The notes: generated from the letters alone by a model not told the origin. Shown: positions 10,893 to 29,532, counted from the first letter of the stretch. The stretch: 64,000 bases of DNA from an uncultured Acidimicrobiaceae bacterium (GCA_963727645.1 CAVSHA010000011.1:64233-128232); one strand, 5' to 3'. A program made the numbers and translations.

Positions 10893-10945
10893 GGACCGCG
10901 CCGTCAACTACGCCGGATTGCGGAGCTGAACGACAGACAGTCAGG

Positions 10946-11206
10946 GTGACCCATCCCTTCCATCCATGGTCAGGCCTGGAGTTCGTGTTCATCAGCCTGC
11001 GTCGCACCTGGGGGGAGGATCGGGTGTTCTTCTTCACCGGTGGCGGCAGGCAGACGTCCCTGCCCACGGCATGGACCGATGCCGCTCAGCCAGATGTCTT
11101 CGTGGCGCTGGCGGATGGACGCTGTCCGTTCCGCATTGAGGATCTGCTCATCCTGGTGGACCTCGTGGATGGGCTTCACGCCGACCTCAGCAGCGGCGGA
11201 GTGTAA
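10946..11206 (+). CDS. LSR-element accessory protein A (86 aa), homologous to the N-terminal region of ORF 26522..26959 in LSR-E2
   Basis: Shared motifs by eye: HPFxxxxGxEF/L, SLPxAWTD, and DLLxxxxxVDxL. Confidence 0.55.
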   Translation: MTHPFHPWSGLEFVFISLRRTWGEDRVFFFTGGGRQTSLPTAWTDAAQPDVFVALADGRCPFRIEDLLILVDLVDGLHADLSSGGV

Positions 11207-11313
11207 GGAGGATTTCGCCGACTGTGACAGGACGATTATGCCGTCGACTACTGAACTGGTCCTTGTCGGTGTGAGGAATACCCATGAAATAAGCCTAAGT
11301 AACGCCTAGATGC

Positions 11314-11341
11314 TTGACACGACTTAGATTGTCGGCATAAT
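11314..11341 (+). promoter_or_regulatory. candidate sigma-70-type promoter for the LSR-E1 operon (TTGACA-N16-CATAAT)
   Basis: TTGACA at 11314-11319 and CATAAT at 11336-11341, in the only AT-rich stretch of the element, 34 bp upstream of the RBS and ATG at 11375. The -10 overlaps one arm of the inverted repeat ATTATGCCG (11235-11243 / 11333-11341). Confidence 0.45.
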
Positions 11342-11374
11342 GATACTTACATTCATGTGATTCGGGAGGTCGCC

Positions 11375-11851
11375 ATGGCGAAAGGCAGGGAGGATCCGAA
11401 GGTGGGGGCACTGCGTGCCGAGCGAAGCTTGAACCCCCACCCGGAATCGGTCACCGACGGCCGCTTTGCGGCCTCGGACTTCTTCGACGCCAGAGATCTG
11501 GTCCAGGTCAAGTACGAGATGGTTCGCCGGGTCCGAGTCGAGGGCGACGCCGTGAGTCGCACTGCCTCCGCCTTCGGCCTGTCCCGCCCCACGTTCTACG
11601 AGGCGGCCGCTGCGCTCGATGCCGGCGGGCTGCCCGGGCTCGTTCCCGCCCGCCCCGGGCCTCGTCGTGCACACAAGCTCACCGACGAGGTGGTCGCCTT
11701 CGTGCGCGATCACCTCGAAGCCGATCCATCGGCACGGCCAGCCGATCTCGTCGAGGTCATCGCCGATCGCTTCGGGGTGAGGGTCCATCCCCGCTCGATC
11801 GAGCGGGCGCTCGCCCGGGCCCCCCACCCCAAAAGTGGAGGCTCCAAGTGA
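11375..11851 (+). CDS. helix-turn-helix DNA-binding protein (transposase-OrfA-like wHTH) of LSR-E1
   Basis: GGGAGG lies 5 nt upstream of the ATG at 11375. HTH segment SRTASAFGLSRPTFYEAAAAL, and a second wHTH-like segment LVEVIADRFGVRVHPRSIERAL. Confidence 0.65.
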   Translation: MAKGREDPKVGALRAERSLNPHPESVTDGRFAASDFFDARDLVQVKYEMVRRVRVEGDAVSRTASAFGLSRPTFYEAAAALDAGGLPGLVPARPGPRRAHKLTDEVVAFVRDHLEADPSARPADLVEVIADRFGVRVHPRSIERALARAPHPKSGGSK

Positions 11852-12107
11852 GCCGCTCGACGACCAAAGCGTGGAGCGCTACGAGATGCTGCGAGGCCAT
11901 GCGCTCGACGGAGCGGAGTCGGGCTGGCGTCTCGGGCTCGCGCTGCTCCAGCGATCCGGCATGGCAGCTTGGGCGAGAGCGTCACGAAGCATCGACACCC
12001 GAGCACCCCTCCGACCGACTCGGGCAGCTGCCCAGCCCGATGCCGACGGCGAGGCGATCGTCGCCGTGCTCACCGCCATGGCTCTGGCCTGCGTGGGAGA
12101 TCGGTGA
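11835..12107 (+). CDS. LSR-element accessory protein (90 aa)
   Basis: Its start overlaps the HTH gene stop and it ends 3 nt before the LSR start. The C-terminal EAIVAVLTAMALA resembles ERLAVVSTLARLM in the LSR-E2 ORF 26503..26715. Confidence 0.45.
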   Translation: MEAPSEPLDDQSVERYEMLRGHALDGAESGWRLGLALLQRSGMAAWARASRSIDTRAPLRPTRAAAQPDADGEAIVAVLTAMALACVGDR

Positions 12108-12110
12108 GTC

Positions 12111-14189
12111 GTGATCGCCGACACCTCCTCCAAGGTCAACTCTTCACATCTGGCGCGCACCGCTTATCTGTACGTCCGTCAGTCCACCCTGCGCCAAGTG
12201 ATCAACAACACCGAGTCCGCCACTCGCCAATATGCCCTGCGCCAACGTGCCGTCGCCCTCGGCTGGCCGGCCGAGCAGATCGTTGTCATCGACACCGACC
12301 AGGGACACTCTGGCGCGTCAGCCGCCGACCGGGAAGGCTTCCAGCGTCTCGTGGCCGAAGTCGGCATGGGCCGTGCCGGGATCGTCCTCGGCCTCGAGGT
12401 CTCGCGTCTCGCCCGGAACAATGCCGACTGGCATCGCCTGCTCGAGATCTGTGCCCTTTCTGGCACCCTCATCTGCGACGAGGACGGCCTCTACGACCCG
12501 GCTGATTTCAACGACCGCCTGCTGCTCGGCCTGAAGGGGACGATGTCGGAGGCCGAGCTCCACTTCATCCGTGCGCGCCTTCGCGGTGGTCAGCTCTCCA
12601 AAGCGCGTCGAGGCGAGCTGCCGATGGTCCCTCCGGTGGGGCTCGTCTACGATGCCGCCGCCAAGCTCGTCCTCGACCCGGACAACGGGGTGCAGCAGGC
12701 GGTCCGGCACCTGTTCGCCACCTTCGCCCGAACAGGCTCGGCACGCGCTGTCGTGCAGGCCTTCAACGAGGAAGGCCTGCAGTTCCCTGCCCGCGTCCGC
12801 AGCGGGCTTCATAAGGGCGAGCTCGCCTGGATGCCGCTGCGCCACTGGCGCGTGCTGCGGACGCTCCACAACCCACGCTATGCGGGCGCGTTCGTCTATG
12901 GCCGCCGCCGAGAGATCAGAGGACCGAACGGTCGGATCCGTCACGAGAGCGTGCCCCGGGACAAGTGGATCGCCCTCATTCAGGACTCGCATCCCGGCTA
13001 CATCACCTGGGAGCAGTTCGAGACCAACCAGGCACTGCTTGCTCAGAACGCCCAGGCGCATGGTGCCGACAGGGTGGCGGGCCCTGCACGCGAAGGTCCT
13101 GCGCTCCTTCAGGGCCTTGTTGTCTGTGGTCGGTGTGGGCGGCGGATGACCGTCCGATACCACGAGCGCCGTGACGGTCCAGTGCCCGAATACAACTGCA
13201 TCGGTGAGGCCATCCAAGCCGGCGCCCGCCGCTGCCTCACCATTCCCGGTGCAGGAGTCGACGAGGCGATCAGCCAACTCCTGCTCGATACACTCACACC
13301 GCTCGCACTCGAGGTCGCCCTCAAGGTGCAGTGCGAACTGGAAGCTCGCTCCGATGAAGCCGACGGGCTGAGGAAAACTCACGTCGAGCGGGCGCGCCAT
13401 CGCGCCGAGCTGGCAAGGCGTCGCTACTTGTCGGTCGATCCTGACAACCGGCTCGTGGCCGACACCCTCGAAGCCGACTGGAACGACTCGCTGCGCCAGC
13501 TCCAAAGCGCGCAGGACGATTACGAACGAGCAAGCGCTGCAACAAGAGGCGCTCTCAGTGAAGAACACAAGGCTCGCATTCGCCAACTTGCGACCGACTT
13601 CCCCATGTTGTGGTCGAACCCGGCCACTCCGCAGCGCGAACGCAAGCGAATGATCCGCCTCCTCATCGAGGACGTCACTCTCGCCAAGGCAGGCATGATC
13701 CACGTTCACGTTCGCTTCCGCGGCGGGCAGACGACGAGTCTCGTCCTGCCGCCGCCACTACCGGCCTGGAAGATCCGCCAGACCGATCCGGAGGCCATCG
13801 CCCTTCTCGGACACCTGCTCGACGAGCACACCGACCTCGAGGTGGCGACGGCGCTCAACGCCGCGGGCCATCATTCCGGACTCGGAAAGCCCTTCACCGC
13901 CCGCATCGTGCTCGAGCTACGCCGCAGCAACCATCTCCCGAGCCACGCCGAGCGCCTGCGTGCTCGCGGGCTTCTCAACCTCGGCGAGGTGGCACAGCGG
14001 CTCTCTGTCAGCACGGCGACTGTCAAGAAGTGGGACCAGGCCGGTCTGCTCGAGAGCTTCAGAGCGAACGACAAGAACGAACGGCTCTACGCTCCGCCGA
14101 GGCCCGATGACCCGAGACTCGTGAAATGCATGGGAAGCAAGCTCGAACGTCGAGTTCTGATCGAATCGACGACAGGAGGTGCAGTGTGA
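12111..14189 (+). CDS. large serine recombinase (LSR1, 692 aa)
   Basis: Resolvase catalytic N-domain (AYLYVRQSTLRQ with the Ser nucleophile, LEVSRLARNNADWHRLLE). Recombinase domain and zinc ribbon (CGRCGRRMTVRY...EYNC). Coiled-coil region and a C-terminal MerR/excisionase-like HTH (LNLGEVAQRLSVSTATVKKW). Confidence 0.92.
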   Translation: MIADTSSKVNSSHLARTAYLYVRQSTLRQVINNTESATRQYALRQRAVALGWPAEQIVVIDTDQGHSGASAADREGFQRLVAEVGMGRAGIVLGLEVSRLARNNADWHRLLEICALSGTLICDEDGLYDPADFNDRLLLGLKGTMSEAELHFIRARLRGGQLSKARRGELPMVPPVGLVYDAAAKLVLDPDNGVQQAVRHLFATFARTGSARAVVQAFNEEGLQFPARVRSGLHKGELAWMPLRHWRVLRTLHNPRYAGAFVYGRRREIRGPNGRIRHESVPRDKWIALIQDSHPGYITWEQFETNQALLAQNAQAHGADRVAGPAREGPALLQGLVVCGRCGRRMTVRYHERRDGPVPEYNCIGEAIQAGARRCLTIPGAGVDEAISQLLLDTLTPLALEVALKVQCELEARSDEADGLRKTHVERARHRAELARRRYLSVDPDNRLVADTLEADWNDSLRQLQSAQDDYERASAATRGALSEEHKARIRQLATDFPMLWSNPATPQRERKRMIRLLIEDVTLAKAGMIHVHVRFRGGQTTSLVLPPPLPAWKIRQTDPEAIALLGHLLDEHTDLEVATALNAAGHHSGLGKPFTARIVLELRRSNHLPSHAERLRARGLLNLGEVAQRLSVSTATVKKWDQAGLLESFRANDKNERLYAPPRPDDPRLVKCMGSKLERRVLIESTTGGAV

Positions 14190-14201
14190 AGCCAAGCCCT
14201 T

Positions 14202-21098: not shown

Positions 21099-22142
21099 TC
21101 AAGTGACCAGAGGCGCGGCGGGGGACCTTGCCGGAGCGAACATCGAGCCCGTCTGGAGCATGTGCCAGATGGCCTCGGTGAGCTTGCGGGCCACTTCGAT
21201 ACGCGCGATCTTGGCGCCGCGTTGGCGACCGAGGCGGGCCTTGGTCCTGTCGTAGTGGTCCTTGTAGATGGGATGACTCGACGCGTGCACAGCAGCCTCG
21301 ATGAGTGACCAGCGCAGGTACTTCGGCCCGTTCTTCGTGATCGGACCGCGGAAGTCCTTGCCGCCGGACTGGTAGACGCGCGGGCAAAGCCCGGTGTAGC
21401 CCATCAACTTCTTCGGAGACGAGAAGCGGGAGATGTCTCCGATCTCCGAGGCGATCGTGAACCCGAGGACCCAGGCGATGCCAGGAGCGGACTGCAGCAG
21501 GCTCACGTAGGGATGGTCCGCTCCGAGTGATTGCAGCTCTTTCTCGCACGCGTCAATCTCAGAGTCAAGGTCGTCGATCATCAAGAGCGCCGTGGCGATG
21601 TTCTTCGTCCAGGGATCGGGGAGCTCGAGACGTCCGAGCAGCTCGCGGCCAGACTTTCCGAACAGGTCCGAGACCGGGCAGGGCTTGCCGAAAGCGAGCA
21701 GGCTCGAATGGATACGGTTCTTCAACATCACCCGGTGGCGCACAAGATGGAGGTGGAAGCGGGCCCGCTCCCGTTCGGCGCGGATCTCCGGGTCCGGGAG
21801 CCATATCGCCGGCACGAGATCACGCCGGGAGAGCTCAGCTAGGACCCAGGCGTCGATCTTGTCGGTCTTGCAGGCAAGCGGTGCGAGACCCTTCACCTTC
21901 TGCGCGTCGGCGATCTCGACGTCCCATCCCATGAGCTCGAGACTGTCGTGGACAAAGCGGGCACCGTTCATCGATTCGATGGCCGCGTTCACCGGTCCGC
22001 CGAGGACCGCCACCTCCTTGGCGAGGTGACGGAGCCCGTCGAGATCGGGAGGAGCTTGGGTGACGGCGAGCTTTGTGCCAGCCTCGTTGAGCACGCAGAC
22101 GTCGAGTCGCTTTCTGCTGAGGTCAAGTCCAAGATGCAACAT
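21099..22142 (-). CDS. IS110-family transposase (IS110-A, apparently intact)
   Basis: DEDD N-domain (LGLDLSRKRLDVCV, AIESMNGARF, KTDKIDAWVLAEL). C-terminal Transposase_20 motifs (LQSAPGIAWVLGFTIASEIGDISRF, GLCPRVYQSGG, ITKNGPKYLRW). The start is taken at MLHLGLD; the tracked start is 22184. Confidence 0.88.
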   Translation of the reverse strand: MLHLGLDLSRKRLDVCVLNEAGTKLAVTQAPPDLDGLRHLAKEVAVLGGPVNAAIESMNGARFVHDSLELMGWDVEIADAQKVKGLAPLACKTDKIDAWVLAELSRRDLVPAIWLPDPEIRAERERARFHLHLVRHRVMLKNRIHSSLLAFGKPCPVSDLFGKSGRELLGRLELPDPWTKNIATALLMIDDLDSEIDACEKELQSLGADHPYVSLLQSAPGIAWVLGFTIASEIGDISRFSSPKKLMGYTGLCPRVYQSGGKDFRGPITKNGPKYLRWSLIEAAVHASSHPIYKDHYDRTKARLGRQRGAKIARIEVARKLTEAIWHMLQTGSMFAPARSPAAPLVT

Positions 22143-22600
22143 GGTGTGGGGGCCTCCTTGGTGTTGGTTCCGACGAGAACCCAATGTTCACGCCGGGGAG
22201 GTCCCTCTTCATGGCATTCAAACGTCTCCGTCGGCGGCGCACAGCGGCTCCAAACACGAGGATCAAGGCCACCCCTAAGAGGTTCGGGTGCCGATCGCAA
22301 AGTGCTGTTACCGGGCGAGTTCTTGGGTGTCCCATATCGCCAGCTAGGTCGCGCACATATCGGTGCCCGCGAATTGGTTTAGCACCAGCGCCGAGTTGAT
22401 GTCATGAAGAAGCGCTGCGCCGCTTCTGCGTGACCGGGCTCCTCGTGCGAGCACGGGCGCCGAGGGAAGCGAGGGCAGCCGTGGCCGCTCGATCCGTGTC
22501 CTCTCCGGCGAACCACCGGAGTCCCTCTCGTGGCCAGGAACCGAATGTGCAAGGCACACTCGGGGTCTCCAAACCAACCCGGAAACGGAAGGGGACTCCG

Positions 22601-22786
22601 GTGGAACACCAAAGACAGTATGTGGGAATAGACCTGCACCGTCGGCGCTCGGTGATCGTGCGGATCACCGAGGACGGTGAGGTGCTCGAGACCGTGCGCG
22701 TCGTCAACGACCCGCTCAAGCTCGCTCTCGCCATGGCGGAAGCCGGTGATGATCCCGAGGTGGCACTTGAGGCTACGTATGGCTGG
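22601..22786 (+). pseudogene. IS110-family transposase B, exon 1 (ends ...EATYGW), interrupted by a group II intron
   Basis: GTG at 22601 follows GGAAGGGG. YVGIDLHRRRSVIVRITEDGEVLE and EAT are DEDD motifs. The frame breaks at the GTGCG that begins the intron. Confidence 0.8.
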
Positions 22787-23386
22787 GTGCGCCACGAGGC
22801 GCCACATGACCGGGTGGGGGGAAGAGCCCCACCTGTGGCCTGTCGCAGCAGGCCGCTGAAGCTGGAGGCAGCCTGACCTCGGAGACGAGAGGAAGGGCGG
22901 GAGCAGCCTCTACAACGCCGGGACGAACTGGCACTACCAGACAGCTCGGGCTCGGCCAGCAAGACGGAGAGGTGTACGTATGCAGGAACCAGTGGTGGAA
23001 CCCCCTCAAGAAGTCAGGACCGGCTGGGAATCTGGTGGATGGCCGGGATGGCAGTGCGCTGCGACTCCCTACAACCGGGAGGGACAGCCTCGACGCCGAG
23101 GGTGCGTCGGGGGCCACGGTGACGTGCTGCGGGATAGCCGTGGACAGGCCTGCAGGGGAAAAGCTGGGCACCGATCCCGTCAACCGGTCTGTGGTGAACG
23201 TGGGAACCGTCCTCTCGGCGCCAACCTGCCGGCCAACCGGGTCGGCAGCGGCAAGGCACGTCGTCTGCTGATGCCGAGAGGGCGGGGCGGAGGGTCCGTA
23301 GTAGTCCGAGGTCGGGAAAGCCGGCCACATGGCGAAGGGACCCAGCGAGCTTGCAGTAGTTGGACTGGAAGATCAGGAGGACGCTG

Positions 23387-23928
23387 GTGAACACCGACGC
23401 TCCGTGGCCCGATCTCTATGAGGCCGAGCAACGGGTACTGAAGATCCAGACGAAGCTGCACCAATGGGCTGCCGACGACCCTCGTCGTCGGTTCGATGAC
23501 CTGTTCAACCTTGTCTCCGATCCTGCGTTCCTCATCGTGGCGTGGGATCGGGTGCGGAGAAATCGAGGGGCACGGTCCAAAGGAGTCGATGGAGTCGCAC
23601 CAAGCTCCATCGTCCTTGGCAGAGAGGCGTTTCTCTCCGGGCTACGAGATGATCTCAAGGCCCGGCGGTTCGTCCCTTTGCCGGTGCGGGAGAAGCTCAT
23701 CCCGAAGAAATCGGGGAAGCTTCGCGGGCTCGGCATCCCAACCGCTCGGGATCGCTGCGTCCAGGCCAGCATGAAGCTGGTCCTCGAGCCGATTTTCGAA
23801 GCGGACTTCAAGCCGTGCAGTTACGGCTTCCGACCGAGGAGACGGGCGCAGGACGCCATCGAGGAGATCTTCTTCTACACGACCCATGGTTACCACTGGG
23901 TTTTGGAGGGAGACATCAAATCATGCTT
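23387..23928 (+). pseudogene. group II intron reverse transcriptase/maturase (IEP), N-terminal part (RT0-RT3, ends ...LEGDIKSC)
   Basis: AGGAGG lies 6 nt before the GTG at 23387. The motifs KGVDGVAPSSI, PVREKLIPKKSGKLRGLGIPTARDRCVQASMKLVLEPIFE, SYGFRPRRRAQDAI and VLEGDIKSC are present. After 23928 the tracked 1055-aa ORF is antisense LSR sequence. Confidence 0.88.
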
Positions 23929-23935
23929 GGAGGCC

Positions 23936-26170
23936 TCAACACACTGCGCCTTCCACTTGTTGCTGCTCGTCGAAGAGACTGGGTTGCGGTCGTTCCACCT
24001 TGATTCTCAAGCCCTTTCTCCTTCCAGCACGCACGTGGACGGCCTCGAGCTCTCCGCGCTTTACACGCTGCAACACCGTCTGGCGGCTGACGCCGAGCGC
24101 CCGGGTGGCTTCGAGCATGGCCAACCAGCCGGGTGGTGCCTCCTCGACGAAGCGGGAGCGGAGGTCGTCTGTGACGCGGATGCGCCACGGTGCCCCGGGG
24201 GTGAGCTGCTCACCGGCGATGAAGCCGTCCCCAAGCCAGCGGTGCACCGTGGATGGCACGACGCCGAGGATCTTTGCCGCCTCGGCGATCGTCACGAGCT
24301 CGCCCTTCTTCTCGTCGAGGGACGAGTCGTGGCGGGCGATCTTCCACGAGGTGCGCAGGCTGGAGACGCGACCGCGGGTGAAGCGCTCGCCTGTTGCGGT
24401 GCGCCGTCCCTGGCGGTTCAAGATGCCCACGATCGTCGCGTCGTCGTAGTGGACAGCGAGCCTGCGCATGAGATCGACCGTGTCCTCGTCAGTGCGGATC
24501 GGTGGGGAGTAGGCACGGGGGAGATCGACGACAAGCTCGGTGGTGGCACCGCCCCGCCACCTGAGCACGAGCACGGCTCGGTGCTCCTCGCGTTCCACCT
24601 CGACGACGACCTCTTCGACCAGAGTCCGCAACAGCTCCTTGCGGTCCTTGTCGGTGGTGCTCGGAGCGGACCACACCCGGCCCACATCGAGCGAGAGGCG
24701 CGAGATGGCTGCTATTTCCTCTGGCCCGAGCACCTTTGGGCGAGCGGCCTCACGCCGGACGAGCTCGGCTTCGGCGTCACGAAGAGCAAGGAGCGCCCGC
24801 TCCCACTCGGCCTCGAGCCCTCGAGCAACGAGGCGGTTGTCCGGGTCGACGGCGAGATAGCGCCGTTCGGCTCTGCTCGCCTGGAAACGGTGCCGTTCGA
24901 CCTCTTTGCGCCATTGCGCCAAGGCGGCGTCGCGGTCGTCCTCGAGCGCTTGTGCCGCAACGAGCGAGGCCTCGATGCCCGCCGGGGCGATAGCCGAGAG
25001 GAACGCTGTCTGAATGGCTTGGTCGATCTGGACCCCGCCGACCGACAGGTGCGTCACGCCCCGCCCCGAGACGAGCTCCCGGCCGGCGCAGTGATAGCCA
25101 GGGCTCGAGTTCGAGCCCTGGTAGTGCACGGCGAGACGCCGCCCGCAGTGCCCGCAGGAAGCGATCCCCTGCAAGAGCGCGGAGCCCTCCCGGAGCGCAC
25201 CGCCCGGCTCATGGGCCTTCGGGCGGATGTTGGCACCGATGCGGACCTGGTTGGCTTCGAAGGTTGCCCAGTCGATGTAGCCGGGGTGATGATCCACGAT
25301 CAGGACCGCCCACCCGTCGCGTCCGACGCGACGCTTTTGGACGCGGGCAGCACCCGCTTTGTCAACGACACGCTCGTGTCGCGTGCGCCCATAGACATAG
25401 GCGCCAGCGTAGGAAGGATGCGTGAGCACGCGGTGGATCGCGTTGTAGGTGGGTGCAACCCACCTGAGCTCGGGCCAGGTGTTCCCCGCCGTTTGCTGCA
25501 ACGGGAACGAGAGCCCCTCGCCGAGCAGCCACAGCCACACCGCCCGCACGGAGCCGGACTCTGCGAATTGGCTGAATACGGCCGCTATCACGCCACGCAC
25601 CGCCTCGTCGGGGTGGAGGAGCACCTCACCCTCCCCCTCCCCCCATACGAGCCCGACCGGAAGGCCCCGGCGGAGCTCACCTCGTGCCGCCTTGTTGCGG
25701 ATCCCGCCCTCGAGCCGGGCACGGAGCACATGCAGCTCGGCCTCGCTCATCGTGCCCTTCAAGCCCAACACGAGCCGGTCGTTGAAGCTCGCCGGGTCAT
25801 AGAGCCCGTCCGCGTCGCCGATGAGCGTGTCGGTCAGCCCGCAGAGATCGAGGAGCCGATACCAGTCGGCGTTGTTGCGCGCGAGACGGCTGACCTCGAG
25901 GCCGAGCACGATGCCGACGTGGCCGAGCGCGACCTCGGCGGTGAGGTGGGAAAAGCCACCCCGGGTGACGGACCCCGATCCGGAGAGCCCGAGGTCTTCG
26001 TCGATCACGACGACCGAAGAGGCGGGCCAGCCGAGCTCGACCGCCCGGCCCTTCAGCGCGTACTGGCGATCGGTGGACTCGGTGTTGTGCTCGAGCTGGC
26101 TCTTTGTCGACTGGCGGACATAGACCAGTGCCTGGCGCCGGAGATGGGACTGGCCGGGCCGTTCACTCAT
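23936..26170 (-). CDS. large serine recombinase (LSR2, 744 aa from the ATG at 26170)
   Basis: ALVYVRQSTKSQ (Ser nucleophile), LEVSRLARNNADWYRLLD, zinc ribbon CGHCGRRLAVHY...GYHC, a coiled-coil, and two C-terminal MerR/excisionase-like HTHs (LVTIAEAAKILGVVPSTVHRWL; MLEATRALGVSRQTVLQRV). Clearly homologous to LSR1. Confidence 0.92.
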   Translation of the reverse strand: MSERPGQSHLRRQALVYVRQSTKSQLEHNTESTDRQYALKGRAVELGWPASSVVVIDEDLGLSGSGSVTRGGFSHLTAEVALGHVGIVLGLEVSRLARNNADWYRLLDLCGLTDTLIGDADGLYDPASFNDRLVLGLKGTMSEAELHVLRARLEGGIRNKAARGELRRGLPVGLVWGEGEGEVLLHPDEAVRGVIAAVFSQFAESGSVRAVWLWLLGEGLSFPLQQTAGNTWPELRWVAPTYNAIHRVLTHPSYAGAYVYGRTRHERVVDKAGAARVQKRRVGRDGWAVLIVDHHPGYIDWATFEANQVRIGANIRPKAHEPGGALREGSALLQGIASCGHCGRRLAVHYQGSNSSPGYHCAGRELVSGRGVTHLSVGGVQIDQAIQTAFLSAIAPAGIEASLVAAQALEDDRDAALAQWRKEVERHRFQASRAERRYLAVDPDNRLVARGLEAEWERALLALRDAEAELVRREAARPKVLGPEEIAAISRLSLDVGRVWSAPSTTDKDRKELLRTLVEEVVVEVEREEHRAVLVLRWRGGATTELVVDLPRAYSPPIRTDEDTVDLMRRLAVHYDDATIVGILNRQGRRTATGERFTRGRVSSLRTSWKIARHDSSLDEKKGELVTIAEAAKILGVVPSTVHRWLGDGFIAGEQLTPGAPWRIRVTDDLRSRFVEEAPPGWLAMLEATRALGVSRQTVLQRVKRGELEAVHVRAGRRKGLRIKVERPQPSLFDEQQQVEGAVC

Positions 26171-26525
26171 CGCCGGACCGCTCTTTCGAAGATAGGGAAC
26201 GCTTCGCGCCACCTTCGTGCTGGAGCGGTGTGTCCTCTCCCACCCTGGCACGGCGGCGCCGATAGGCGGCCTGGCGACAGCCCGGCGAACAAAAGCGAGG
26301 CTTCGAGCCCGTCCGGGACCGAAGGAGCACGCCGTCGAGATCGGTGCGCACGAAGCGGCCACAGGGCGGGCAGACAAAGCCGACCGGTGACACCTCGGTG
26401 GCAGACGAAGAAGCGTCACGCAATGTGTCCTCATCCACCGAGCGACTCACTGGAGTTCTGCGTGACGCGTGCGGTGCCCCAGCAAGAGCGGGGCTCGTTC
26501 CCTCACTCCGTCGTGGCTCGGTCAT
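26163..26525 (-). CDS. small zinc-ribbon protein (CPPC...FCSPGCRQAAYRRRR) of LSR-E2
   Basis: 120-aa ORF with four Cys in CxxC/CxxxC spacing and a basic tail. Its stop overlaps the LSR2 ATG by 8 nt. The N-terminal half is low-complexity, so the true start may be internal. Confidence 0.5.
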   Translation of the reverse strand: MTEPRRSEGTSPALAGAPHASRRTPVSRSVDEDTLRDASSSATEVSPVGFVCPPCGRFVRTDLDGVLLRSRTGSKPRFCSPGCRQAAYRRRRARVGEDTPLQHEGGAKRSLSSKERSGDE

Positions 26526-26715
26526 GACGTCCCTCCTTCTTCTCGATCGACTTCGCCATCAGGCGTGCGAGCGTGCTCACGACGGCGAGGCGCTCGGTGG
26601 GTGCCAGCTCCTCCCAGAGAGGACCGACCGTCACCTCGTCCTCGAACAGCTCCAGGCTCAACTGCACGGGCAACCTCCTCGTCTGGTCTGTGCCGATCCT
26701 GGCGAGGGTTGTCAT
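26503..26715 (-). CDS. LSR-element accessory protein (about 70 aa from an internal Met of ORF 26503..26817)
   Basis: The C-terminal LWEELAPTERLAVVSTLARLMAKSI resembles the tail of the LSR-E1 orf90. The start choice is uncertain. Confidence 0.35.
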   Translation of the reverse strand: MTTLARIGTDQTRRLPVQLSLELFEDEVTVGPLWEELAPTERLAVVSTLARLMAKSIEKKEGRHDRATTE

Positions 26716-26959
26716 CGAGGTGGTGGACCAGGCGATCCACGACAGCACGGGCGTGCAGAAGGTCCGACAGCGTTCCCAAGGTGCCCGATTCACCTTGGCG
26801 CTCGGGGATCTGTTCAAGGTCGGTCCACGCAGCTGGGATCAGGCTCTTCGAACCATCCGGCAGGACGAGGCACAGCTCGAGGCTGTTGTGCCGGTGCATC
26901 GCGCTCAATACAGAGAGCTCCTGGCCCTCGAAGGGATGGTGGGGTCGCACGATGCGCAC
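26522..26959 (-). CDS. LSR-element accessory protein A homologue; only the first ~85 aa look genuine
   Basis: MRIVRPHHPFEGQELSVLS...DGSKSLIPAAWTD...LSDLLHARAVVDRL aligns with LSR-E1 orf86. The remaining ~60 aa are R/G/P-rich and overlap the next ORF. Confidence 0.5.
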   Translation of the reverse strand: MRIVRPHHPFEGQELSVLSAMHRHNSLELCLVLPDGSKSLIPAAWTDLEQIPERQGESGTLGTLSDLLHARAVVDRLVHHLDDNPRQDRHRPDEEVARAVEPGAVRGRGDGRSSLGGAGTHRAPRRREHARTPDGEVDREEGGTS

Positions 26960-27003
26960 CTTTTCCGGAAGGTCCCGGACGTGGGCAGTGTGTCGCCTAC
27001 TCC

Positions 27004-27894
27004 TTCGACGAAATCTCCCACGTCGGCCTCATGGACCGATTGCGGAGAAGAGTTGGAGACAAGCGCGTCCTGGGACTGGTGAAGGCGTTCCTCAAAGCTG
27101 GTGTCCTCGGTAAGGACCAGGTGATGAGGGACACCGTTACCGGCACTCCGCAGGGTGGCATCCTCTCACCGCTCCTGGCGAATATCGCCCTGTCGGTGCT
27201 CGATGAGCACTTCATGGACGAATGGGAGTCCTGGGGCGGCACCTACGAACGCAGGCGAAGGCGTGTCAAGGGCCTGGCGAATTACCGAATCATCAGGTAT
27301 GCGGACGACTTTCTCGTCCTGGTCCACGGCACCGAAGAGCATGCCCAAGCACTGCGGTCAGAGGTTGCAACGGTGCTTTTGCCGATGGGCTTACGCCTGT
27401 CGGAGGAAAAGACACTGGTCACCCACGTCGACGAGGGCTTCGACTTTCTCGGCTTCCACATCCAGCGGAAGCGCCAAGAAGGAACGAATCGGCGCACGAT
27501 GTACACCTACCCGTCGAAGAACGCTCTCGCGGCGATCAAGGCGAAGGTGCGTGCGCTCACGCAGGGCAACACGAACCAGACCCTGGCCAACCTGCTGCAG
27601 CGGCTGAATCCGGTGCTGCGGGGCTGGACCAATTACTTCCGGCACGGCGTGTCGGCGAGGACCTTCAGCTACCTGAACGCCTTCTCTTGGCGGCGGGTGG
27701 TCAACTGGCTTCGCCATAAGCACCCTCGTGCCTCTTGGAGTTGGCTCCGTCGCCATCATCTCCCGAAGTGGCGGCCGACGGACGGCGAGGTGACCCTTTT
27801 CAACCCGGCGACGGTGTCGATCACGAGGTATCGCTACCGGGGGACAAGGATCGCAACGCCTTGGGCAGGGCCGAACGAGAGGGACGCCGCATAG
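27004..27894 (+). pseudogene. group II intron IEP, C-terminal part (FDEISH..., RT4-7 with YADD, and the X/maturase domain)
   Basis: FDEISHVGLMDRLRRRVGDKRVLGLVKAFLKAGV, TPQGGILSPLLANIAL, RYADDFLVL, GFDFLGFH and LNPVLRGWTNYFRH are present. The tracked ORF 26344..27894 upstream of 27004 is antisense LSR-E2 sequence. Confidence 0.9.
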
Positions 27895-27916
27895 CCCGGC
27901 GGCATGAGCTCGTGGA

Positions 27917-27950
27917 GAGCCGGATGCGGGGGAACTCGCACGTCCGGTTT
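27917..27950 (+). ncRNA. group II intron domain V
   Basis: GAGCCGGATGCGGGGGAACTCGCACGTCCGGTTT closely matches the 34-nt DV consensus. It has the AGC triad, a 2-nt bulge context and a GGAA (GNRA) tetraloop. Confidence 0.85.
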
Positions 27951-28014
27951 GGGAGTGCGGGCCGGGGAGACGGACCATCGAGAGGTGGATACCGCGCTCC
28001 GGCCCGACACTCAC

Positions 28015-28260
28015 TACTGGGCGGCCGATCTGTTGCAAGCCGAGGGCGCACACGTACACCTCGTCCATCCCCTCGGTCTGCACTGGGACTCAAGACGTGT
28101 GAAGAACGACCTGCTCGATGCCTCCGAGCTCGCGAAACGACTCTCCCGGGGTGATCTCCCAGAAGCCTGGATCGCTCCACCGGAACTTCGAGAGCTGCGA
28201 GAGCTCGTCAGATACCGTGCCAAGCTCGTCGCCCTGCGCATCTCGGCCAAGGCCCAGGTG
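28015..28260 (+). pseudogene. IS110-family transposase B, exon 2 (YWAADLL...RAKLVALRISAKAQV), truncated and fused in frame to the integrase remnant
   Basis: VKNDLLDASELAKRLSRGDLPEAWIAPPELRELRELVRYRAKLV is the conserved IS110 N-domain end. The C-terminal Transposase_20 half is absent. Confidence 0.8.
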
Positions 28261-29346
28261 CTGCGCCGCGGGTTTGCCACCAAGAAGAAGGCACAGGAGG
28301 AACTCGATATCGTGCGGGGCCAGGGCCGCACGAACAGTTACGTCGCTCCAGCGAGACTGACCGTCAGGGAGTACCTCGAGCAGTGGGTAGCCGGCCTACC
28401 CGTGACGGGACTGCGCCCGTCAACGATCGACGGTTACAGGCGGAACATGGACTACGTGATCCCCGTCTTGGGCGGCCTCCGTCTCGAAAGCATCACCTCA
28501 CTCGACCTGGACCGGCTCTATTCCCAACTGCTCGTCTCGGGACGCCGGCAGAGACCCGGACCGCTCTCGAAACGGACCGTTTTCTACATCCATTCCGTTC
28601 TGCACCGGGCTCTTTCGGACGCAGTCAAGACGGGCATCCTCTCCCGGAACGTGGCAGATAACGCCTCCGCCCCGTCCGCGAAGTCCACGCGGCCGCCGGA
28701 GGCTTCCTGGTGGACCCCTGCCGAACTCCGCACGTTCCTTTCCGCCACAGCGGACGAGCCGCTCGGCCCGCTGTTTCGTGTGGCAGCGATGACAGGCATG
28801 CGGAGGGGCGAAGTTTGTGGGCTGCGCTGGTCCGACGTCGACCTTGATGGCGCGCGTGTCGAAGTCCGTCAACAGCTCAACGTGGTTCGCTCACCCGGTG
28901 CACCTGACGGCGGCCTCGTCTTCTCTGCACGTACCAAGACCGACCACGGGCGACGGTCCATCGACATCGATCGGGCGACGGTCGCCGCTTTGCGGACCCA
29001 GAGGAAGCGCCAAGCCGAGCAACGGCTGCTCGTCGGCGCGGGCTGGACGAACGATCACGACCTTGTCTTCACCGACCCCGCCGGTCACCCGCTTGATCCG
29101 GAGTCGGTCGCGAAGGTGTTCGACCGCCGGGTCCACCGGCTCGGTCTGAAGCGGCTCAGGTTCCATGACCTTCGCCATACGCATGTCGCTCATCTGATCG
29201 CGGCCAAGCAGCAGCCGCTGAAGATAGCGAAGCGGCTTGGTCACGCTTCCGCGGCCTTCACGCAAGACTGCTACGGCCACCTCTTCGAGGATGCCGACTC
29301 GGAGGCTGCCGCCGCGGTTGCCGCAATGGTCGACGAGGCGTTGTGA
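28261..29346 (+). pseudogene. int: phage-type tyrosine integrase, missing its N-terminal few dozen residues
   Basis: It begins within the arm-binding/SAM-like region (RRGFATKKKAQEELD...LTVREYLEQWV). The catalytic motifs are AAMTGMRRGEVCGLRW, RFHDLRHTHV and LGHASAAFTQDCYGH. It abuts tRNA-Leu. Confidence 0.85.
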
Positions 29347-29378
29347 TCAGGCGAGGCGCTGTGATCAAAATGTGATCA
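29342..29378. repeat. three TGTGATCA motifs (candidate arm-type sites) at the integrase-proximal island end
   Basis: The octamers lie at 29342-29349 (overlapping the int stop codon), 29360-29367 and 29371-29378. Confidence 0.5.
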
Positions 29379-29447
29379 TTGGGCGGTTTTTGGCCTCTCG
29401 CAACGGCTTACGCAAGCCTGTCACGTGCGACTTTGTGTCGGCGTCGG

Positions 29448-29470
29448 AGTGCCCGGAGCGGGACTTGAAC
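29448..29470. repeat. tRNA-proximal att site of the island
   Basis: Identical 23-mer to 17455-17477. It covers the last 21 nt of tRNA-Leu plus 2 nt downstream. Confidence 0.85.
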
Positions 29471-29532
29471 CCGCACGTCCTTTCGAACAACGGCTTTTGA
29501 GGCCGCCGCGTCTGCCATTCCGCCATCCGGGC
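29450..29532 (-). tRNA. tRNA-Leu (anticodon CAA)
   Basis: The minus strand reads GCCCGGA TG GCGGAATGGCAGACGC GGCGGCCTCAAAAGCCGTT GTTCGAAAGGACGT GCGGGTTCAAGTCCCGC TCCGGGC A. It has a 7-bp acceptor stem, anticodon loop CT-CAA-AA, the long variable arm typical of Leu, and the T-loop GGTTCAAGTCC. Confidence 0.88.

Follow-up and report, generated by a model that had tools for sequence, protein, structure and literature searches.

What is a recombinase operon doing inside the reverse transcriptase (RT) gene of a group II intron, and how did it come to be there? The question is raised by a 64,000-nucleotide stretch of DNA from an uncultured Acidimicrobiaceae bacterium (GCA_963727645.1, CAVSHA010000011.1:64233-128232; hereafter the window), in which a segment encoding a large serine recombinase (LSR), here called LSR-E2, interrupts the protein-coding gene of such an intron. 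The junctions of this segment, the uninterrupted relatives of its host intron and a census of related insertions together make it very probable that LSR-E2 is a member of a widespread and apparently undescribed family of serine-integrase elements, of the size of an insertion sequence (IS), that home to the active-site motif of group II RTs.

LSR-E2 occupies 23929..27005 on the minus strand (3077 bp, one copy of the TT/AA core being counted) and breaks the RT gene between ...LEGDIKSC and FDEISH.... On the plus strand the intron-encoded protein (IEP) reads ...HWVLEGDIKSC until 23926, where its N-terminal part (23360..23926) ends, and restarts as FDEISHVGLMDRL at 27004, the first position of the RT/maturase C-terminal part (27004..27894). 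With a slash marking the point of insertion here and in the motifs below, the left junction is ATC AAA TCA TGC TT/GGAGGCCTCAACACACTGC and the right junction GCAGTGTGTCGCCTACTCC TT/CGACGAAATC. The crossover dinucleotide TT can be read at both, once at 23927..23928 beside the LSR stop codon (AA in element orientation) and once at 27004..27005 as positions one and two of the codon for the Phe of FDEISH. Removal of 23929..27005 gives ...IKSCFDEISH... and a protein of 485 amino acids with the Pfam domains RVT_1 and GIIM, colinear and without a gap over the junction with the solved RTs T.el4h (...DADITGCFDNISH...) and LtrA (...EGDIKGCFDNIDH...); the motif that holds the insertion adjoins the catalytic Asp (motif A). 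The restored IEP has unbroken homologues at 95, 93 and 89% identity, and four contigs that encode the IEP at 95% amino acid identity carry the same intron unbroken, with 90-92.6% of nucleotides identical along a stretch of 2.2-2.7 kb that includes the junction. These empty sites read GATATCAAATCGTGCTTCGACGAAATCTCCCAC, i.e. GATATCAAATCGTGC-TT-CGACGAAATCTCCCAC, and unbroken copies of the host intron (90-93% nucleotide identity) are continuous at this point as ...ATCAAATCGTGC-TT-CGACGAAATC..., lacking precisely the inserted segment. The predicted attachment site attB of LSR-E2 in the RT motif is GGAGGGAGACATCAAATCATGC-TT-CGACGAAATCTCCCACGTCGG (left half at ~23900..23926, right half at ~27006..27035), and the predicted repaired RT junction is ...ATCAAATCATGC-TT-CGACGAAATC.... 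Base composition differs across the same boundaries, with a GC content of 0.68-0.69 in the insert and 0.61-0.63 in the flanking IEP. The original prediction, made from this sequence alone, had proposed a discrete LSR element within the RT gene with TT at both junctions, whose deletion restores IKSCFDEI at a conserved RT motif; the empty site shows that it had placed the ends exactly right, and related IEPs do have the continuity CFDEISH. We also considered LSR-E2 as a part of a larger co-mobilised unit, which is ruled out by copies of 82-97% nucleotide identity that stop at the same bases in unrelated flanks. The observation is therefore confirmed and its interpretation supported.

Are the ends of the segment those expected of an integrative element? 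When joined they read GCAGTGTGTTGAGGCCTCC-AA-GGAGTAGGCGACACACTGC, and they bear out the attP-like layout that had been proposed for them, in which the outer 9 bp form a perfect inverted repeat and the two arms match at 14 of 19 positions (chance ~5e-5 among random 19-mer pairs taken from the window). In element orientation (minus strand), the arm at the LSR end, GCAGTGTGTTGAGGCCTCC (23929..23947), holds the LSR stop codon and has the family consensus CcAGGGGGCAGTATGAaGaaGgATCC, while the arm at the opposite, DUF5372 end, GGAGTAGGCGACACACTGC (26985..27003), has the family consensus GGAAacCACGACACACTACCC; the ends of the family as a whole follow AA-GGAAacCACGACACACTACCC ... GGGGGCAGTATGAaGaaGgATCC-AA. 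Inverted arms, a 2-bp core at both junctions and an exact empty site, by which the attachment sites of large serine recombinases are recognised, are thus all found here. In a circular form just 53 nucleotides, attP itself, would part the LSR stop codon from the start of the first gene, and for this reason we infer that expression of the LSR-E2 operon is controlled at or across attP.

If LSR-E2 is mobile, related copies should be found elsewhere. The recombinase of LSR-E2 (LSR2) has thousands of close homologues, many of them on contigs of ~2.7-3.3 kb, a length typical of a repeat that breaks assemblies. On contigs with 99%, 93% and 88% identical LSRs, homology to the window starts and stops exactly at the element ends, and close relatives are flanked by RT genes that differ from one another yet are split at one and the same motif (DLDIRAF/FDSVPH in locus L001a, DADIKAC/FDNIDH in L005, EADIKDF/FGQIDH in L004). 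The L001a copy is 97% identical to LSR-E2 and sits in a different RT, and the same ends recur in L001b, L002 and L007. We extended the comparison by a family scan of pattern-matched stretches on contigs of one genome per species, all figures from which cover the matches listed: at least 593 stretches encode relatives (593 of 600 matches), in hosts that include Actinomycetota, Acidobacteriota, Alpha-, Beta- and Gammaproteobacteria, Gemmatimonadota, Verrucomicrobiota, Spirochaetota and others. For a census we located junctions in two rounds, first through tblastn searches with either half of the IEP and afterwards through position matrices built from the conserved element ends, which left 76 loci where one junction or both could be read. 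We found that 63 of the 76 have a DUF5372 plus LSR unit and show the RT motif (D-[IL]-x-x-[FCY]/F-[DG]-x-[IVL]-x-H) wherever a side could be read, and in these 63 the recombinase operon invariably runs antisense to the RT. Moreover, 45 distinct complete attB sites could be reconstructed, 43 with the core TT, and over ~+/-25 bp conservation falls on the nucleotides that the codons for W-V-x-D-x-D-[IL]-x-x-[FCY]/F-[DG]-x-[IVL]-x-H dictate, while all other positions are free to vary. The usual element size in the family is 2.70-2.76 kb, and the subclade of the window is larger because of an extra open reading frame (ORF) described below.

The interrupted genes belong to true group II introns. RVT_1 and GIIM were detected in 7 of 8 restored host RTs; the Rfam D1-D4 families 1, 2, 3, 4 and 6 together with domain V/VI flank the split ORFs (15 loci); and excision in silico regained junction-spanning ORFs of at least 380 amino acids in 23 RT-targeting loci. 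In the window the host intron (22787..28016, plus strand; 2153 bp without LSR-E2) has a GUGYG-type 5' end (GTGCG at 22787) and a domain V/VI match to Rfam Intron_gpII at 27915..28014, besides the RVT_1 and GIIM domains of its RT.

These data bear on whether LSR-E2 could instead be a TnpX/TndX-like serine transposon of low specificity whose insertion into an RT gene was a matter of chance. In favour of this, the element resembles a transposon in its small size and many copies, and one LSR lineage can cope with attB sequences that differ widely. Against this, 63 of 76 loci share the same codons and the same orientation, and nucleotide conservation extends over ~+/-25 bp, beyond a short motif. 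DUF4368, which is reported as common in the multi-targeting TndX/TnpX clade (Durrant et al. 2022, PMC10083194), is absent from the Pfam matches of LSR2. We consider chance insertion extremely improbable, and rejected it.

Could all of these loci then descend from a single ancient insertion, inherited with the intron, the LSR genes being fixed cargo and the shared position reflecting common descent? The window and L006 do share a related element (LSR 88% identical) and a related RT core (70%), and in one metagenome-assembled genome (MAG) a 4530-bp composite of intron and element is present at two loci, L020 and L021, at 99.96% identity. Over 23 elements, however, LSR identity and RT-core identity show hardly any correlation (Spearman 0.16). 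L004, L005 and L006 encode an identical LSR while their RT cores are just 48-56% identical, which argues that their insertions were independent and recent; L016 and L017, again from one MAG, have only the element in common. The hosts cover several Rfam structural classes of intron, homology between copies ends exactly at the element ends, and unbroken copies of the same intron exist. The empty introns, the element-only homology and the scarcely correlated identities led us to reject a single ancestral insertion, to which we give next to no credence.

The composites bear on a further alternative, in which the element spreads mainly as passive cargo of composite introns that are retrohomed by an RT supplied in trans, the recombinase only occasionally shifting it to a new intron. 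The L020/L021 pair is what this would predict, as are similar composite pairs at L026/L027 and L032/L079, and intact RT genes adjoin occupied ones in L002, L046, L053 and L072; moreover, extra sequence can be accommodated in domain IV of a group II intron. On the other hand, host switching is frequent, and the L020/L021 pair could reflect either two separate invasions of identical introns or retrohoming of the composite. We regard cargo transport as an unlikely account of the family overall. Somewhat less likely again, in our judgement, is a domesticated switch like skin or fdxN (XisF), with programmed excision that would turn the intron RT on or off for the benefit of host or intron. Conservative recombination does regain the RT exactly, LSR-E2 has a weak, sub-threshold similarity to XisF in NCBIfam, and a host might be unaffected by the silencing of a selfish element or even profit from it. 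However, the element moves among unrelated introns and phyla as a selfish element does, what is interrupted is a gene of another mobile element, not a developmental gene of the host, and no sign of regulated excision was seen. Since the mechanism would be identical, a switch is compatible with homing to the RT motif, which we continue to prefer.

What does LSR-E2 encode that could carry this out? Its three genes all lie on the minus strand and are translationally coupled. The last of them encodes LSR2 (23936..26170; 744 amino acids; P0001, from metagenome ERZ25039466, is 99% identical), which contains the Pfam domains Resolvase (residues 14-165, E 4.8e-17), Recombinase (194-311, E 2.1e-14), Zn_ribbon_recom (332-388, E 1.5e-6, above cutoff) and, within a C-terminal extra region of ~260 residues, two excisionase-type HTH_17 domains. 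In an alignment of 20 sequences the motif YVRQST (Ser21) and the arginines of ..SRLARN.. are invariant. An AlphaFold2 (AF2) model with an overall mean pLDDT of just 61.6 has long helices after the zinc ribbon, at ~379-475, where pLDDT reaches 94 at best; in this low-confidence model the helical region may fit a coiled coil. The stop codon (GCA GTG TGT TGA) lies within the terminal arm, 7 nucleotides from the element end. LSR2 is 44% identical over 653 residues (E 6e-162) to LSR1, the recombinase of a second element of the window, LSR-E1. Upstream of LSR2 is the extra ORF of the window subclade, a putative zinc-binding (Zn) ORF of 120 codons with the motifs CPPC and FCSPGC (the CxxC/FCSxxC ORF; 26163..26525), which is coupled to both neighbours, overlapping the LSR start by ATGAGTGA and the upstream ORF by ATGA. 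It is conserved at 68-97% amino acid identity in L001-L007, is missing from typical 2.7-kb family members, and matched no Pfam or NCBIfam family. The first gene of the operon (26522..26959; 145 codons), which starts 44 nucleotides from the element end, is an accessory ORF of the DUF5372 (Y4bD/Y4pK) type; it scores 27.9 bits for PF17342 against a cutoff of 25 (E 2.4e-6), over residues 4-50 only. Its homologues carry PF17342, one bearing the name Y4bD/Y4pK, and its counterpart in LSR-E1, orf86, matches DUF5372 at 88.2 bits (E 3.6e-25). In the AF2 model of the protein a small beta domain is joined by a helix and a basic tail that is disordered; the model is confident at 1-45 and in the helix at 64-83. 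This ORF precedes the LSR in nearly all family loci, and we hypothesise that its product is a directionality or accessory factor. The position of the LSR stop codon, the overlap of the Zn ORF with the LSR start and the homology of both LSR2 and the accessory ORF to proteins of LSR-E1 had all been part of the original prediction, and each was found again in these analyses. Starting with the IEP, a 1055-residue open frame also extends on the plus strand across the antisense of the complete LSR gene (23360..26527), and is taken to be a high-GC antisense artefact rather than a gene.

On this basis LSR-E2 would be a minimal, IS-sized integrative element without replication or transfer genes, moved by its own LSR through conservative site-specific recombination. 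By analogy with studied serine integrases LSR2 would be the responsible enzyme, acting on attP, formed by the joined ends with imperfect inverted arms about the AA/TT core, and on an attB of ~50 bp that codes for RT motif 3/A of group II intron RTs. LSR2 dimers would bind both sites, synapse, cut at the TT of the Phe codon and exchange strands; the core is non-palindromic and would set the orientation, which accounts for a recombinase operon that is always antisense to the RT. Integration would split the RT beside the catalytic Asp of motif A and so disable intron mobility and maturase function, leaving the intron dependent on an RT in trans until the element leaves. Excision, perhaps aided by the DUF5372 protein, would re-create the RT gene, exactly because recombination is conservative, together with a circle. 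In this manner the element would exploit active-site nucleotides that purifying selection holds constant, with the consequence that landing sites would be available in very different introns and hosts.

Evidence for the excised form is limited to a single observation. A search with the family-consensus attP pattern found one metagenome contig (L094, from Ga0182025) with, in order, the LSR 3' end, GGGGGCAGTATGGAACACGATCC-AA-GGACACCACGACACACTACCC, the DUF5372 ORF and the LSR 5' end, and its two halves align to integrated elements exactly up to their right and left ends. This contig could be the predicted circle junction. Several points weigh against the account given above. The L094 arrangement could also be a head-to-tail tandem, and the attP pattern of the window subclade, GTGTGTTGAGSCSTCCAAGGAGTAGGCGACACACTGC, had no match in metagenome contigs; support for excision and integration by LSR-E2 in this genome is at the level of sequence. 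Thirteen of the 76 census loci depart from the RT motif on some readable side and represent other targets, rearranged sites or unreadable ones. Among solved structures the sole sequence match of LSR2 is a catalytic domain at E 4e-4, and its own model, as noted, is of low confidence; a Foldseek comparison of the DUF5372 fold with the PDB gave no significant match (best E 0.33), with weak resemblance to SH3, chromo and Tudor-like barrels. A sigma-70 promoter scan of 23850..27150 found none, yet such a scan is uninformative at ~65% GC. Weighing these points with the junctions and the census, we conclude that LSR-E2 is a real, site-specific and probably active element.

Family members abound in bacteria of soil and water, and also on plasmids of rhizobia, Pseudomonas and Burkholderia, their annotation there being no more than 'recombinase family protein'. 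Carriers at the RT motif include the cultured strains Ralstonia pickettii RAL3, Bradyrhizobium septentrionale 28S5, Mesorhizobium tianshanense NBRC 102499 and Kribbella sp. NPDC050124, which make the element testable; the copies of RAL3 (chromosome 3, CP158805.1, ~91.8-102.0 kb) and 28S5 (plasmid pBs28S5b) look intact, with both junctions readable and a full-length RT regained. The TOL plasmid pWW53 (L092, NC_008275.1) has, between benA and xylS, a frameshifted and decayed RT-targeting member between short RT remnants, and a second P. putida plasmid (NC_014124.1) gives the same match. In two loci the core differs between the junctions of one element, as noted at their right junctions (GA vs AA in L004, CA vs AA in L036), which could be due to mutation after insertion or to integration at a mismatched core. 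L002/L003 and L033 are 'half' sites, with the RT motif on one flank and unrelated sequence on the other, and suggest rearrangement or recombination between element copies.

In the window itself LSR-E2 is part of a nested arrangement of four levels (22430..29532). The host intron interrupts an IS110-family transposase gene in its 5' part (exon continuity EATYGW/YWAADLL), this gene continues in frame into a tyrosine-integrase ORF (27904..29346), and that ORF adjoins a tRNA-Leu gene (29449..29532, minus strand). The unbroken intron copies L088-L091 also share upstream IS110 sequence, homology beginning at about window position 22388. A separate, intact IS110-family transposase gene (21099..22184, minus strand; 361 residues, DEDD_Tnp_IS110 plus Transposase_20) is found just upstream of the copy that bears the intron.

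Is the RT motif the only kind of target used by such elements? LSR-E1 (10893..14201, plus strand; 3309 bp, TT core) lies in an IS3-family OrfB at ...QCWD-N/AVAES, in the region of the catalytic Glu, and its excision mends an OrfB of 337 residues. Its four genes, namely a DUF5372 ORF, an HTH_32/HTH_28 protein, a 90-residue ORF and LSR1 (12111..14189), match the layout of y4bD-y4bA of NGR234. E1-like elements on plasmids of cultured strains all lie in the catalytic-Glu motif of DDE transposases: the site of LSR-E1 itself, IS3 OrfB D-N/A-x-x-E-S, in Rhodococcus opacus pLPS8 (L096) and a Burkholderia sp. PAMC 26561 plasmid (L099); PQAK/GRVER of an ISNCY rve-type transposase for y4bABCD of NGR234 (L095, pNGR234a); and the ..K-[AG]-K/V-E motif of IS21 IstA in Paraburkholderia pSYMBR3459 (L097; ..PAKKG/) and Aromatoleum EbN1 plasmid 2 (L098; ..DKAK/VE). 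Closer relatives of LSR-E2 use other sites again. In L037 and L038 (Vicinamibacterales MAG), with LSRs 62-64% identical to LSR2 and the same end sequences, the target is the first catalytic Asp region of an IS3 OrfB (DVFSRRV/VGWAM, core AC), and excision regains an OrfB of 366 residues. An element in L060 (Solirubrobacterales MAG; LSR 62% identical to LSR2, same orientation) interrupts a transposase-like gene at ...GWPIATGIIE/GACRHLIKDRMDITGARW, which from the motif alone we take to be ISKra4-like, and in L086 (Acidimicrobiales MAG, ~690 and ~3500) an LSR 50% identical to LSR2 lies in the Walker A motif of IS21 IstB, NLCLVGPPG/TGKSHLLVALG.

What these targets apparently have in common is that they encode a catalytic motif of an enzyme from a mobile element: motif A of group II RTs, the DDE 'E' motif of IS3 OrfB, IS21 IstA and ISNCY, the first Asp of IS3 OrfB and Walker A of IstB. 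We therefore lean, if only slightly, towards the broader proposal that LSR-E2 and LSR-E1 represent an undescribed superfamily of minimal LSR plus DUF5372 elements that are obligate hyperparasites, the attB of each lineage being the catalytic-motif codons of an enzyme of another mobile element, whose owner would be knocked out reversibly and might also serve as a vehicle. If this holds, purifying selection on the active site of the victim would guarantee landing sites in any host, and the victim (intron, IS or plasmid) may carry the element, for example by retrohoming of a composite intron. Within a few kb of RT-targeting elements, L018, L058, L073 and L074 have second LSR genes 39-49% identical to LSR2, which suggests that different members of the superfamily tend to cluster. 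On one contig (L001, 1..11961; ERZ25039466 contig_2775) two copies of the closest relative of LSR-E2 (97% nucleotide identity) point in opposite directions and adjoin different RT fragments, with a third, unrelated LSR gene (624 residues, 23% identical to LSR2) and a small ORF between the copies; it looks like a pile-up of LSR elements.

Elements of this kind would add a layer to the ecology of mobile DNA, in which a cut-and-paste serine-integrase element lives in and inactivates group II introns while its relatives do the same to IS elements. They also offer a natural experiment in LSR target recognition, with single lineages accepting attB variants by the dozen that have nothing but codon-constrained nucleotides in common, which is of relevance to the retargeting of serine integrases for genome engineering. 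Moreover, the element would be a ready tool, and because the RT genes are disrupted precisely and reversibly, 'pseudogene' RTs or transposases that flank a recombinase become recognisable and can be repaired in silico. In the literature covered, which mostly excludes subscription journals, we came across no account of an LSR element in an RT gene, of DUF5372, of y4bA-D as a mobile element or of the target of y4bA-D, and the LSR survey of Durrant et al. 2022 (PMC10083194) never names a reverse transcriptase as a target.

How does LSR-E2 compare with known systems? With phiC31, Bxb1, A118, the SPbeta prophages and the Ccr recombinases of SCCmec it shares the domain set Resolvase, Recombinase and Zn_ribbon_recom, a short attP with imperfect inverted arms, a 2-bp non-palindromic core that orients the reaction, and conservative insertion into coding sequence with an exact empty site. 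In contrast to phage and ICE integrases, however, the family of LSR-E2 measures just 2.7-3.1 kb and contains nothing beyond the recombinase operon, its attB consists of the protein-motif codons of another mobile element, with one LSR lineage accepting many variants, and LSR2 has the C-terminal extra region with its two helix-turn-helix domains, whereas solved integrases match in the catalytic domain only. TnpX and TndX (Tn4451, Tn5397) likewise use an LSR as the transposase of a small, multi-copy element that excises and circularises, although their targets are short and degenerate and they usually possess DUF4368; in the LSR-E2 family a single ~50-bp motif of one gene family is used, DUF4368 is undetected and a DUF5372 partner is present nearly always. 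The y4bA-y4bD and y4pH-y4pK sets of Sinorhizobium fredii NGR234 pNGR234a have the gene order of LSR-E1, with an LSR 52% identical to LSR1, and are annotated as hypothetical, recombinase or transposase; the set is inserted in a transposase gene, and LSR-E2 is a two- to three-gene variant with an RT target. Specialisation on a conserved feature of mobile or repeated elements is also known from IS1111-attC, group IIC-attC introns, Tn7-like elements at CRISPR repeats and the IS1202 family at dif (PMC10132070, PMC11837452), but these employ DDE/DEDD transposases or retrohoming at structured or non-coding sites, whereas LSR-E2 would employ a serine integrase at catalytic-motif codons. Finally, the skin and fdxN/XisF elements resemble LSR-E2 in that an LSR element interrupts a gene and excises exactly; unlike them, LSR-E2 interrupts the gene of a selfish element, shows no sign of developmental control and belongs to a family that is horizontally mobile across phyla.

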